64,000 bases of DNA from a virus (lineage: Duplodnaviria; Caudoviricetes): IMG/VR virus record IMGVR_UViG_3300049595_005065. One strand, 5' to 3'. How positions within the stretch are numbered: position 1 is the stretch's first letter; each line of letters begins with the position of its first letter. Positions 1,753-64,000 of the stretch are shown piece by piece. Under the pieces are notes generated by a model. The model did no database searches, was not told the DNA's origin, and saw only the letters and a list, made by a program, of their open reading frames with translations. Position numbers and translations under genes: made by a program.

Positions 1753-1782
1753 GCGAATAGATATCTAACCTGGCCCTATCTT
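1753..1782 (+). promoter_or_regulatory. Extended palindrome site GCGAATAGATATCTAACC with downstream TATCTT (copy 1)
   Basis: 18-bp identity with 2942-2959; intergenic, upstream of ATG 1818. Confidence 0.55.
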
Positions 1783-1817
1783 GGCCGGGAGTCCCATTCC
1801 CTTGCGAAAGGAAACCT

Positions 1818-2927
1818 ATGTCCCTGTTTTCAAAGTCCGGCAACGTGTGGCACCCGCATCGGGAAGCGGCGCTCAATCTACAAGACCGTTTGCCCGCGGG
1901 TACCTACACGGTCAAGCAGAACCAGATGACTCAAGAGTTCTATCTCGAGGCGATCGACAGCTTCACGTTGCCCGACCGGATCTACGGGGATATCGCCCGG
2001 CAGACCAACCGGATCATCCGGTCGTTCTCGGAGCGCCCGGCCGGTACCGGCGTGCTGCTGGTCGGCGAGAAGGGTTCTGGCAAGACCCTGCTCAGCAAGA
2101 ACGTCTGCATGAACCTGCAGCGCGTCGGCGTGCCCACGATCGTGATCAACCACCCGTGGCACGGCGACGAGTTCAACGCGTTCATCCAGACGATCGAGCA
2201 GCCCGCTGTGATCCTCTTCGATGAGTTCGAGAAGAACTACAAGCGGGAAGTCCAAGAACAGCTGTTGACGCTCCTGGACGGCGTGTTTCCCAGCAAGAAG
2301 CTGTTCATGCTCACATGCAACGATCAGTACCGAATCGACTCGCATATGCGCAATCGGCCGGGACGGATCTACTACTTCGTCAAGTTCGCTGGGCTGGGCG
2401 AGGAGTTCGTGGAGGAGTACTGCCAGGACAACCTGCTGGATACCCAGTACATCGAGAAGATCGTGCAAATCTCCAAGATGTACGGCCAGTTCAACTTCGA
2501 CATGCTGCAGAGCCTGGTCGAAGAGATGAACCGGTTTGACGAAGATCCCATAGCGGCGCTTGAGATGCTCAACGCCAAACCCGAAGAGGACGGCGGCGGC
2601 AAGTACGCCGTTCAGATCATCCACGAGGGCTTGGTGTACGAGGGCAAGGACATCGACGAAGGCTCGACGTTCACCGGCAATCCGCTGGTAAACGACGTCG
2701 ACGTCGGGATCTATCTCCGGGGCGAAGGCGCGCCGGGCGCTCAGGACGACGAGGACGATGACAACCCGGCCACGGAAAACCGAAAGTACCTGTCGCTGGA
2801 CTTCACGCCGGAGGACTTCGTCAGGTTCGATCCTGTCAATGGGCAATTCGTCTTCCAGAACGACAAGGCGATGTGCATTTTGACCCGTGTCCGGGAGCGC
2901 GCCAGGCACAACATGCTGGCATTCTGA
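1818..2927 (+). CDS. AAA+ family ATPase
   Basis: Walker A GEKGSGKT, Walker B ILFDEFEK, MLTCN sensor, RPGR arginine finger. Confidence 0.9.
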   Translation: MSLFSKSGNVWHPHREAALNLQDRLPAGTYTVKQNQMTQEFYLEAIDSFTLPDRIYGDIARQTNRIIRSFSERPAGTGVLLVGEKGSGKTLLSKNVCMNLQRVGVPTIVINHPWHGDEFNAFIQTIEQPAVILFDEFEKNYKREVQEQLLTLLDGVFPSKKLFMLTCNDQYRIDSHMRNRPGRIYYFVKFAGLGEEFVEEYCQDNLLDTQYIEKIVQISKMYGQFNFDMLQSLVEEMNRFDEDPIAALEMLNAKPEEDGGGKYAVQIIHEGLVYEGKDIDEGSTFTGNPLVNDVDVGIYLRGEGAPGAQDDEDDDNPATENRKYLSLDFTPEDFVRFDPVNGQFVFQNDKAMCILTRVRERARHNMLAF

Positions 2928-2941
2928 CCGGGCTGTTTTCT

Positions 2942-2971
2942 GCGAATAGATATCTAACCCGCCCTTATTCT
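2942..2971 (+). promoter_or_regulatory. Extended palindrome site GCGAATAGATATCTAACC with downstream TATTCT (copy 2)
   Basis: 18-bp identity with 1753-1770; intergenic, upstream of ATG 3017. Confidence 0.55.
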
Positions 2972-3016
2972 GGGGCGGATGGGTTCGGTGTTTCCCCCTT
3001 TTAACGAGGTGTTTCT

Positions 3017-62049: not shown

Positions 62050-62063
62050 ACACGGAGGTTTAC

Positions 62064-62792
62064 ATGTTCACGGTTAATCCCGAACTTCTTACGCTCGCCC
62101 GGCAGGCTTTTGAAAAGTCTGCCGTCGTGCCGTCCGACCCGGCAATGATGGCGGCAGGCGGCGCGCCTCCGATGGGTGGTGGAGCTCCCGATCCGTCAAT
62201 GATGGGCGTGCAAGGCGCTGCGCAGCCGGTTGATCCGGCGACGGCTGCCATGGGCGCCGCCCCGCCGCCGGGCGCTGACCCGACGGGCGCCGCGACTGCC
62301 GCTGCGCCTCCGGCCGCGGCTCCAGCCCCGATGCCCCCGGCGACGCCCACCGGCGGCGCTCCGGGTCAGCAGAAGCTCAAGCCCGAGCAGATGATGCAGA
62401 TGCTCGACTACCGGCTCTACAACATGCAGCAGCAGCTCACCGCGATCATGAACGCGATGGGCGTCCAGGTCCCGCCCGAGTCGCTTGTCCTGCCGCCCGG
62501 CACGACCGGCGCTCCTCCGGCCGAGACGGCGTTGCCTGGCGGTCCGATGGCGCCGCCTCCCCAGGATCCCAACGCTGCCGGTGGCCCGATGCCGCCGGGA
62601 GGCCCGCTGCCCCCAGGCGGCCCGATGGACCCTAGCCAGCCGCCCGTGGACCCCAGCGCTGCCAAGCAGGCGAACTGGTGGGACGCGCCGGTGGCGAAGT
62701 TTGTCCAGGCCAACCCGGAAGAGCCCACCACGACGCAGCTCAAGGCAGCGGCGGTCGGCGCGCTTCTCCGGAGCCTGAACAGTGCGCGTTAA
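62064..62792 (+). CDS. Pro/Met/Ala-rich low-complexity protein
   Basis: SD GGAGG; disordered-looking, no Cys; EKSA, KQA and KAAA motifs; lies between the two RNAP genes. Confidence 0.8.
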   Translation: MFTVNPELLTLARQAFEKSAVVPSDPAMMAAGGAPPMGGGAPDPSMMGVQGAAQPVDPATAAMGAAPPPGADPTGAATAAAPPAAAPAPMPPATPTGGAPGQQKLKPEQMMQMLDYRLYNMQQQLTAIMNAMGVQVPPESLVLPPGTTGAPPAETALPGGPMAPPPQDPNAAGGPMPPGGPLPPGGPMDPSQPPVDPSAAKQANWWDAPVAKFVQANPEEPTTTQLKAAAVGALLRSLNSAR

Positions 62793-63021
62793 GCTTCAGA
62801 ACAAGCTGCAGCCGACCGCGCGGCCCGCGGACAGCGTGGTCATCGAGGACGATCAGGGAAACCCGATCTTCGTGGCGATCCAGTTCGCTGAGTCGATCAT
62901 GATGTCAGACATCAACGACCCGGATTTCCACTCGGTCCTTCGCCAGCTTGGAATTGACAAGACCGTCTCGATCACCGAGCTGCAGCCCAAACCCGTGCAG
63001 AATGTGATCTGGAAGCCCTGA
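62782..63021 (+). CDS. Small hypothetical protein
   Basis: GTG start overlapping the previous gene; ends 2 nt before the next ATG. Confidence 0.7.
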   Translation: MRVKLQNKLQPTARPADSVVIEDDQGNPIFVAIQFAESIMMSDINDPDFHSVLRQLGIDKTVSITELQPKPVQNVIWKP

Positions 63022-63023
63022 CC

Positions 63024-64000
63024 ATGCTCAAGACCACACTAGGCCAGCTGCTTGTCAATCAGGCGCTACCCGAGGACATGCGCAACTATGAGCGTGTCCT
63101 GACCAAGAAGGACATGGGCAAGCTGGCCACCGAACTGGCGCAGAAGCACCCGGATAAGTACCGGGACGTTATGAAGCGCTTGCACGACGCTGGCCGGGAC
63201 GCGGCGTACACTACGAACGGTCTGTCGTTCGGGCTCAAAGATATCAAACCGACGCTGGCCGCCCGGGACATCCAGCAGCGTGTGCAGCGGCAGCTCCGCG
63301 GGATTCTGGCCGACCGGAAACTCGACGACAAGACGCGCTCGCTGGCGATTCTCAAGTTGGCCGCAGGCGCCCAGAGCGAGCTGATCGACAAGGTCTATGA
63401 AGAAGCGCGGGGCGTGGACAATCCCCTGGCGCACCAGGTTGCCGGGTCTGCCGTTGGCAACAAGTTCTCGTTGAACTCGCTCATCGGCGCCGACATGCAG
63501 TACGTCGACCACAAGAACGAGCCGATCCCCATTCCTGTGATGCGCGGCTACGGCCAGGGCCTGCGTCCCGTGGAATACTTTGCGGGTGCCTTCGGCACCC
63601 GCAAGGGCGTGATGGATCTGAAAACAGCCACCGCAGACGCTGGCTTTTTCGGCAAGCAGCTCGCCCAGATGACGCACCGCCTGCTTGTCACCGACGACGA
63701 CGAGCGCGACGAGGAGCGCCTCGCCGCCGCGCACGACCGCGGTTATCCCACCGACGTCGACGACACCGACAACGAGGGCGCCCTGCTCGCCCGGCCGGTG
63801 GGGCCCTACAAGCGAAACACGGTCCTGACTCCCAGGATCCTGAAAGATATCAAAGAGATGGGCATCCAGGACATCCTGGTCCGTAGCCCGCTCGTGGGCG
63901 GCCCAGAAGACGGCGGCGTTTACGCCAAGGACGTCGGTTACCGCGAAAAGGGCCGCCTGCCGCCGATCGGCGACTATGTCGGCGTCGCCGCGGCCCAGGC
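63024..64000 (+). CDS. rpoC: RNA polymerase beta' C-terminal subunit (truncated at window edge, not in ORF track)
   Basis: My translation: MLKTTLGQLL..., bridge helix QGLRPVEYFAGAFGTRKGVMDLKTATADAGFFGKQL, VRSP, GDYVGVAAAQ. Confidence 0.93.
   Translation, partial: MLKTTLGQLLVNQALPEDMRNYERVLTKKDMGKLATELAQKHPDKYRDVMKRLHDAGRDAAYTTNGLSFGLKDIKPTLAARDIQQRVQRQLRGILADRKLDDKTRSLAILKLAAGAQSELIDKVYEEARGVDNPLAHQVAGSAVGNKFSLNSLIGADMQYVDHKNEPIPIPVMRGYGQGLRPVEYFAGAFGTRKGVMDLKTATADAGFFGKQLAQMTHRLLVTDDDERDEERLAAAHDRGYPTDVDDTDNEGALLARPVGPYKRNTVLTPRILKDIKEMGIQDILVRSPLVGGPEDGGVYAKDVGYREKGRLPPIGDYVGVAAAQ

Follow-up and report, generated by a model that had tools for sequence, protein, structure and literature searches.

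The locus considered here, a window of 64,000 nucleotides spanning bases 10995-74994 of the 127,388-bp Caudoviricetes record IMGVR_UViG_3300049595_005065 (termed G000), raises the question of what reads a short A/T-flanked palindrome that recurs throughout it, within genes as well as between them. The element is GATATC with A or T (W) at three positions on each side, written W3-GATATC-W3. The array of WWWGATATCWWW sites is best explained, with a probability of roughly 0.55, as a set of operator or docking sites bound by a dimer and acting globally. The record derives from lake-water metagenomes (assembled contigs of DNA runs), has 62.5% GC and is estimated to be ~62% complete; its 131 genes, called by a purpose-built codon-usage model, are all on the + strand with 92% of the DNA being coding. 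The family set used for comparison consists of 31 IMG/VR contigs found via the RNA polymerase gene, with lengths of ~200 kb, terminal repeats in some and 53-63% GC; in the window this gene spans 57673-62049, and its product is a beta/beta'-like RNA polymerase subunit. Five relatives fetched whole (~200 kb, complete or near-complete) have >97% of their genes on one strand. G001 is a complete genome of high site density (49 sites), G007 is 96% complete with 40 sites, G006 also has 40 sites, and G004 is the most distant relative compared. A search for similar DNA in cultured phages found none, and the nearest cultured polymerases, in Salmonella phage Arash and some Vibrio phages, are only 33% identical.

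The window has a GC content of 62.1%, inside the 60-65% estimated by an earlier sequence-only reading, and a recount agrees with that reading in finding 27 GATATC hexamers, 24 of them with A/T at all six flank positions, and nine exact copies of AAAGATATCTTT at the coordinates listed in Table 1. Its assertion that chance would supply far fewer than one such site is borne out by a dinucleotide shuffle, which gives 0.04 matches (at most one mismatch) compared with 14 seen in the window. The whole of G000 contains 47 GATATC, 40 of them W3-flanked, against ~0.04 expected. Other AT-flanked hexamers are not equally common, as any other W3-flanked hexamer, palindromic or non-palindromic, occurs at most three times in G000. 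When the codons of G000 are shuffled synonymously, keeping the proteins and the codon usage, 14.0 sites remain, approximately the number of intergenic ones (15), which the shuffle leaves alone; the ~25 within genes are lost and were therefore written at the DNA level rather than arising as a protein artefact, confirming that the palindrome is under DNA-level selection. The in-gene sites occupy all three frames (15, 3 and 7 in frames 0, 1 and 2) and encode the peptides KDIF, KDIK, xKISx and QRYL, as the sequence-only reading had noticed. Selection thus readily writes a 12-bp word into coding DNA via synonymous codons.

W3-GATATC-W3 is the sole strongly enriched dispersed word in G000, G001 and G007, and its occurrence is all-or-none. 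The 40 sites in G000 are perfect, and no copy departs from the 12-position pattern by a single letter; 4-5 copies of GATATC having only four or five W flanks would be expected and there are none, and GATATC lacking W flanks is not enriched. Eleven copies in the window are intergenic, close to the ten or so counted by eye, and the long fibre genes lack the site as had been observed, with the 1503-aa virion-protein gene and the collagen-like fibre gene having no W3-flanked copy. Of the three extended palindromes described from the letters, those of 14 and 20 bp are perfect and the 34-bp one has one mismatched pair. A literature search for the 12-letter word matched only an oligonucleotide from an EcoRV co-crystal, and an IMG/VR scan for CAAAGATATCTTTG gave, among the matches listed, mostly single occurrences in unrelated contigs.

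The position weights of the site are a mirror image, A/W/A-GATATC-T/W/T with "not T" at -1 and "not A" at +12, and beyond these positions there is no information and no asymmetry within 25 nt on either side. In three genomes, complementarity between the letters of the left flank and those of the right is no more frequent than expected if the two were independent. The half-sites therefore vary independently and base pairing is not required, meaning that the element is not a hairpin in RNA or single-stranded DNA; the frequent forms AAAGATATCTAT, AAAGATATCAAA and TTTGATATCTTT allow no pairing beyond GAT/ATC. Intergenic copies favour the perfect ATAGATATCTAT and genic copies favour AAA on the left, where ATA in genes would be expected to introduce a stop in one reading frame and, in a second, a rare codon. 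The flanks differ between lineages with G000 and G001 having AWA-GATATC-TWT and G007 having CTC-ATT-GATATC-AAT-GAG, an 18-bp palindrome, both flanks being switched in mirror image. At the non-coding locus of window position 37580, AAAGATATCTTT in G000 and G001 corresponds to TTTGATATCAAA in G007 within conserved surroundings, and the site 20-22 nt before the dTMP-kinase-like gene is ATAGATATCTAT in one dialect and AATGATATCAAT in the other. The mirror-image switch, including these two orthologous loci, matches the prediction for a dimeric reader co-evolving with its sites, and together with the two-fold symmetry and the independent half-sites it supports the proposal, made from the letters, of a binding site for a dimeric protein, which is the most probable kind of reader.

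The sites are enriched 4-fold in non-coding DNA, which makes up 8-11% of these genomes and holds 15/40 sites in G000 (with the other 25 genic), 17/49 in G001 and 16/40 in G007 (p = 5e-7, 9e-6 and 4e-8, respectively). Of the 50 gaps with a length of 40 nt or more, no more than 13 hold a site, and the in-gene sites are placed uniformly along genes without gene-end preference. The spacing is more even than random, with a coefficient of variation (CV) of 0.60 in G001 (0 of 5000 random sets as low) and 0.67 in G007 (P = 0.003); the G000 fragment alone has a CV of 0.78, which is not significant (P = 0.06). There is roughly one site every 3-4 kb of one-directional genome, and long gap-free operons have internal copies every 1.4-5 kb.

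Comparison of G000 with G001 shows 9 of 17 alignable genic sites in common, and sites upstream of genes are shared in 7/9 and 9/9 cases compared with 0/76 and 2/78 for genes without a site. Very few positions in either genome recur in G007 (1-2 of 14-16 among genic sites, 1/8 and 2/9 among upstream ones), with the density being similar. Relatives without a given site encode the same peptide via GC-rich codons, for example AAGGACATCAAG. The positions are thus reshuffled at constant density, and selection therefore favours a site per genome stretch more than particular genes. High density, defined as 20-37 sites per 100 kb, is found where the polymerase is at least 83% identical (G000, G001, G006, G007, G014, G016, G017 and G025). 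Most other relatives have 0-10 sites per 100 kb with looser flanks, and G004 has none. G002 and G003 have 8-16 copies of a directional (G/T)TTTAGATATC(A), mostly intergenic in G003, and G002, G003, G005 and others, with polymerases 77-79% identical, have no abundant motif and 8-21 loose copies. Four genome states are distinguished accordingly, namely no array, directional TTTAGATATCA, AWA..TWT and ATT..AAT. These amount to a natural experiment in which sister lineages that share a gene order have no array, a small number of directional copies by promoter-like boxes or a full array in either dialect, and the availability of complete genomes for each state makes the binder findable by correlating alleles with dialects. 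G004 contains ~13-17 copies of a near-palindrome of its own, CAAT-CCGCGGG-TATTG(AA), in either orientation and mostly 7-30 nt before start codons (e.g. gene-sense 7383, 133525 and 221423; L047-L058).

Two classes of promoter-like element are present in the same genomes. The bipartite motif CTAAAT-N14-GGGCATAT(T) occurs 4-12 times per genome in G000, G001, G002, G003 and G007, always intergenic. Some CTAAAT boxes have GATATC or GCTATC 2-9 nt upstream of them (2/4 in G000, 2/9 in G001, 2/5 in G007, 6/12 in G003 and 1/4 in G002), the distance being 9 nt in G002 and mostly 4-9 nt in G003. This looks like the position of an activator or repressor and an ancestral use of the site. A T-run followed by TAGCTATCAG, found in all genomes examined except G003 and including G004, may be a second promoter class; its TAGCTAT core lies 13-48 nt before start codons in G004.

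In the preferred reading, WWWGATATCWWW, with ATAGATATCTAT or AAAGATATCTTT as the best form, would be a high-specificity double-stranded DNA site for a symmetric, most likely homodimeric and probably phage-encoded protein, each half of the dimer contacting half of GATATC together with its A/T-rich flank. The ancestral state, still seen in relatives, would have been about ten copies of directional TTTAGATATC(A), in G003 mostly located at the 4-9 nt spacing upstream of the CTAAAT box. In the clade of the window the site would then have become fully palindromic and risen in number to ~20-30 per 100 kb, in part through the choice of synonymous codons within genes. The array may act globally on transcription or compaction, as a roadblock, silencer or organiser, rather than as a set of gene-specific switches.

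The search for the binder covered domain families, gene distribution and structural prediction. ParB_N (PF02195) is absent from G000, G001, G007, G003 and G004, with control genomes being positive. The sequence-only reading had pointed to an actin-fold ATPase gene and a phage RNA polymerase gene, both of which are present, and had proposed a segregation site as one option. This option is not supported, as no ParB was found and the actin-fold gene (41795-42826, Volactin family, PF25216, E 5e-62) does not co-vary with the motif. As a partner the Volactin-family gene was rejected because it occurs in 7 low-density genomes and is absent from the complete high-density G001; it has 78-89% identity in most of the family and is absent from G004 also. 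The PD-(D/E)XK gene beside the 20-bp palindrome was likewise rejected as the reader, being absent from G007 and G006. A protein atlas look-up of two polymerase-operon proteins returned nothing usable. Approximately 23 genes are common to G001 and G007 and absent from G002, G003 and G004, two of which encode small, very basic proteins. One of these, P0001, the strongest candidate, has 110 amino acids with a KTKTK head and a KRKKAVRRR tail, and a site lies 44 nt upstream of its start codon. It is present in 3/3 high-density and 0/8 low-density genomes among the 11 genomes at least 75% complete, the gene lying outside the G000 fragment, and has 20 homologs, all without a name. Its AlphaFold model (mean pLDDT 60) has a helical core and disordered basic tails. 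The second basic clade-specific protein is distributed similarly, and co-distribution therefore does not single out one gene; both proteins are leads only as candidate readers. An island restricted to the high-density genomes (gene-sense 96-125 kb in G001, L040-L041; 8-14 kb in G007; 101-107 kb in G006) contains a DnaQ-like protein, exonuclease-looking by eye only, and two small very basic proteins, a 107-aa basic protein being encoded at L040:18841-19161, and a CsrA gene (PF02599, E 2e-22) lies near it in G001.

Several observations weigh against a dimer-bound array of global role. No HTH_3 (five genomes), ParB_N or sigma70_r2 domain was found in the motif-bearing genomes, and Pfam and PHROGs searches of ~60 proteins were mostly blank, including most of the small proteins. 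P0001 is one of ~23 clade-specific genes, its predicted fold is of low confidence and a Foldseek comparison of the model with the PDB found no structural match. RNA runs were sought for this DNA and none matched. Some intergenic sites occupy the interval that separates a terminator-like hairpin from a ribosome-binding site, which leaves no space for a further promoter, and one site abuts tRNA-Met; both arrangements fit a promoter as well.

The most serious alternative is that the palindrome is the core promoter or loading site of the multisubunit RNA polymerase of the phage, with transcription starting no more than a few nucleotides from its downstream edge and in-gene copies re-starting transcription along operons; this is conceivable, though unlikely. 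The promoters of phage polymerases, as in T7-type phages, are usually the most over-represented and invariant word of the genome, as is the motif here. Sites located 14-60 nt ahead of start codons, on the upstream side of the ribosome-binding site, sites directly following a terminator-like hairpin (G000 8464 then 8507, G001 177312 and G000 30375 then 30407) and the internal copies of the long gap-free operons are all in keeping with it. A site also precedes tRNA-Met in both dialects, by 18 nt in G007 and by 2 nt in G000, where ARAGORN places the tRNA closer than the 5 nt read from the letters. The phage encodes a beta/beta'-like polymerase, and polymerase subunits of the distant relative Arash are abundant in virions (PMC10585845). 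Against a promoter, the element is fully two-fold symmetric and evolves symmetrically even though all 131 genes are on one strand, and where the polymerase of a relative is 77-79% identical there are no more than 8-16 directional TTTAGATATC copies. Genes with an upstream site in G000 or G001 are mostly without one in G007, most gaps hold no site, and the in-gene copies are not concentrated at gene ends. Promoter-like elements distinct from the palindrome are present as well, and the site lies upstream of their first box. The promoter option raised by the sequence-only reading is disfavoured by this lack of direction, by related polymerases without the motif, by gene positions that are not kept and by the separate boxes.

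A more speculative possibility, and a doubtful one, is that the sites form the nucleation grid of a chromatin-like phage system in which a small, very basic reader, with P0001 as one candidate, would coat, loop or silence the genome from sites approximately every 4 kb. If so, the protein and ~50 sites would have switched specificity together between sister lineages, and the array would be a phage nucleoid addressed by sequence, not a collection of operators.

It is improbable that the reader is instead encoded by the host, for example a nucleoid-associated protein or a global regulator, for which the phage has accumulated sites, with the flank switch marking a change of host. Bacterial nucleoid proteins typically target A/T-rich islands within GC-rich DNA, and no phage DNA-binding domain was found, but the known nucleoid proteins have loose preferences, unlike the strict core here with its lack of one-mismatch copies, and the high-density genomes share an island with small basic proteins, so that a phage-encoded reader is plausible. 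The restriction-type palindromes that are wholly avoided form a different set in each of the lineages of G000, G001, G003 and G004, which suggests heavy, differing restriction pressure and possibly different hosts, a point in favour of a host protein. The host-like UDP-galactopyranose mutase gene, used for host prediction, is without taxonomic signal (50-61% identity to many phyla) and speaks against it. The avoided palindromes comprise GCCGGC (0 compared with ~105 expected in G000 and 0 compared with 127 in G001) and ATGCAT (0 compared with 8.3 in G000); AGCT (0 compared with 511 expected), AGATCT, CTCGAG, CTGCAG, GGATCC and GGGCCC, all at 0 in G003; and AAGCTT, CCATGG, CTCGAG, GGGCCC and ATGCAT, all at 0 in G004.

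GATATC is the site of the EcoRV methylase, and a methylation-linked iterated palindrome of the HIP1 type, where a methylase, possibly with biased repair, would recognise A/T-flanked GATATC and the sites would be retained or increased on that account and not for protein docking, is a further and very improbable alternative. Methylases read 4-8 bp and the site here is a 12-18-bp dyad with switching flanks, its GATATC core not being enriched without W flanks. Dam-type D12 (PF02086) and N6/N4 (PF01555) methylases are absent from G000-G003, including the complete G001, and adenine methylation by such a phage enzyme, which the sequence-only reading had considered, is not supported. S-adenosylmethionine-dependent methyltransferase (Methyltransf_24) domains do occur in the high-density genomes; this protein was rejected, as it sits in a sugar-modification cluster with only a short domain of ~50-70 residues common between genomes. 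The absence of one-mismatch neighbours would fit conversion to a canonical word, and the abundance in all frames, the conservation in close relatives and the quasi-even spacing resemble HIP1 (PMC4390886, PMC5861425).

An RNA element, acting as a hairpin or nuclease site in transcripts, is the least credible explanation, since, even with every copy transcribed in the same sense from the single coding strand and some copies extended to 14-34-nt palindromes, the flanks pair no more than chance in three genomes, the forms AAAGATATCTAT, AAAGATATCAAA and TTTGATATCTTT cannot pair beyond GAT/ATC, and mirror-symmetric weights without pairing would be a property of dimer-read double-stranded DNA.

Table 1. 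Positions of the palindromic sites and promoter-like elements (window coordinates unless G000 is named; strand not assigned)
Element	Position	Context
Site ATAGATATCTAA	1757..1768	Intergenic, 49 nt before gene start 1818
Site ATAGATATCTAA	2946..2957	Intergenic, 59 nt before gene start 3017; site also upstream of best match in G001
Site TTAGATATCAAA	4800..4811	Intergenic, 9 nt upstream of CTAAAT-N-GGCATAT promoter-like box (4821-4848)
Site ATAGATATCTTT	6144..6155	Intergenic, 4 nt after T-run+TAGCTATCAGCG element (6128), 60 nt before start 6216
Site AAAGATATCTTT	7671..7682	Last 33 nt of gene 6216-7703, 47 nt before next start
Site AAAGATATCTTT	9586..9597	In gene 7730-10003, frame 2
Site AAAGATATCTTT	10667..10678	In gene 10551-11291; perfect 14-bp palindrome 10666-10679
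Site ATAGATATCTAT	11323..11334	Intergenic, 25 nt before SNF2-type helicase gene (11360); 14-bp palindrome 11322-11335
Site TTTGATATCTTT	12253..12264	In SNF2-type helicase gene
Site AAAGATATCTTT	13083..13094	In SNF2-type helicase gene, frame 1
Site ATAGATATCTTT	19214..19225	Overlaps stop codon; 2 nt before tRNA-Met (19228-19300)
Site TTTGATATCATT	19413..19424	Intergenic, after terminator-like hairpin, 35 nt before start 19460; site also upstream of G001 ortholog
Site AAAGATATCTTT	24571..24582	Centre of 34-bp near-palindrome 24560-24593; between 1503-aa virion-protein gene and fibre gene
Site AAAGATATCTTT	29585..29596	Intergenic, 18 nt past gene end
Site TTTGATATCTAT	30469..30480	In small gene
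Site ATAGATATCTTT	35215..35226	Overlaps stop codon; 31 nt before PhoH start 35258; same 31 nt in G001
Site AAAGATATCTTT	37580..37591	Perfect 20-bp palindrome 37576-37595; conserved non-coding stretch
Site AAAGATATCTAT	41636..41647	In gene
Site AAAGATATCTTT	46643..46654	In glycosyltransferase-25 gene
Site AAAGATATCTTT	49960..49971	12 nt into gene 49948-50970; retained in L005, L013, L016, L026, L028
Site AAAGATATCTAT	52769..52780	In gene; retained in six close relatives
Site TTAGATATCAAA	61009..61020	In RNA polymerase beta-like gene; relatives have same peptide with GAAGACATCAAG-type codons
Site AAAGATATCAAA	63237..63248	In gene 63024-64904; retained in G007
Site AAAGATATCAAA	63843..63854	In gene 63024-64904; relatives use AAAGACATCAAG (synonymous loss or gain)
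CTAAAT-N14-GG(G)CATAT(T) boxes	4821-4848, 5662-5689; G000 7828, 89150 (outside window)	
T-run+TAGCTATCAGCG	5645-5656, 6128-6139; G000 89964	After GC-rich hairpin; 26-130 nt before gene starts

Other features of the window were annotated from domain and RNA searches. A tmRNA is located at 537-884 (Rfam RF00023, 121 bits; ARAGORN tag GTFNSAPALAA) and is found also in G001 and G007 beside tRNA genes. The region 37792-38238 encodes a small PD-(D/E)XK endonuclease of PF11645, a family to which an intron-encoded homing enzyme belongs, and its occurrence among relatives is patchy; in G001 and G007 the conserved non-coding DNA that follows the counterpart of site 37580 reaches a tRNA-Asn gene, and ARAGORN finds none in the window. 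The sugar-modification cluster (38243-47002) comprises Methyltransf_24, glycosyltransferase-9-like, UDP-galactopyranose mutase (E 1e-74), DUF3431/nucleotide-sugar transferase and glycosyltransferase 25 genes, and a cupin is encoded at 31292-31717; most of the sugar-cluster and cupin genes are present in G001 and not in G003. The genes at 13308-15443 and 16198-17487 encode a collagen-repeat tail-fibre protein and a protein with an Mtd N-terminal domain (PF18454), Mtd (major tropism determinant) being a target protein of diversity-generating retroelements. Also encoded are PhoH (35258-35974), a PAS-domain protein (47868-48428), a 2H phosphoesterase (48439-49566) and a matrixin-type peptidase with a peptidoglycan-binding domain (51858-52658).

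Several known systems resemble the array in part. KorB-OB and KorA-OA of the IncP plasmid RK2, ParB-parS and Noc-NBS are short, dimer-bound palindromes with 7-70 dispersed sites and global action, and sites of the KorB/ParB type are located in some cases in promoters and in others far away. The array here differs in that ParB_N is lacking from the five genomes searched and in that the site sequence is unrelated. HIP1 (GCGATCGC) of cyanobacteria is an 8-bp cellular palindrome tied to orphan methylases (PMC4390886, PMC5861425). It is similar to the phage site in being a high-density palindrome in all frames with DNA-level selection and quasi-even spacing, whereas the phage site is 12-18 bp with lineage-specific flanks and the genomes searched contain no Dam-type (D12) or N6/N4 methylase.

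The stoperators of Cluster A phages (L5; PMC9283540, PMC6550527) are also comparable, as a regulator site multiplied to 20-35 copies in coding and non-coding DNA, derived from a promoter operator and co-evolving in specificity with its regulator between lineages. Stoperators are asymmetric, 13-14 bp in length, oriented with transcription and bound by the monomeric immunity repressor of temperate phages, in contrast with the two-fold symmetric site found here. No repressor or integrase turned up in this phage, which looks virulent, none having been specifically searched for; as to a stoperator-type repressor, no HTH_3 domain was found in five genomes and most small proteins are without a family match.

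Dispersed invariant palindromes have been noted in a few phage groups, and the nearest described case is the 17-bp dyad repeat TGTTCGG-N3-CCGAACA of the Cluster O mycobacteriophages, Corndog among them (PMC4351075). Corndog has 34 invariant copies in and between genes, often near gene starts, and the repeat is cluster-wide with function and binder unknown (PMC4351075). The array described here is similar in having >30 dispersed copies with invariant half-sites, located inside and between genes and conserved in relatives. It differs in having no spacer, an A/T-rich site in GC-rich DNA and a 6-bp palindromic core, and in belonging to an unrelated phage family whose ~200-kb genomes encode a multisubunit RNA polymerase and have all genes on one strand. 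Two further features, flanks that switch in mirror image between sister lineages and even spacing, are demonstrated here.

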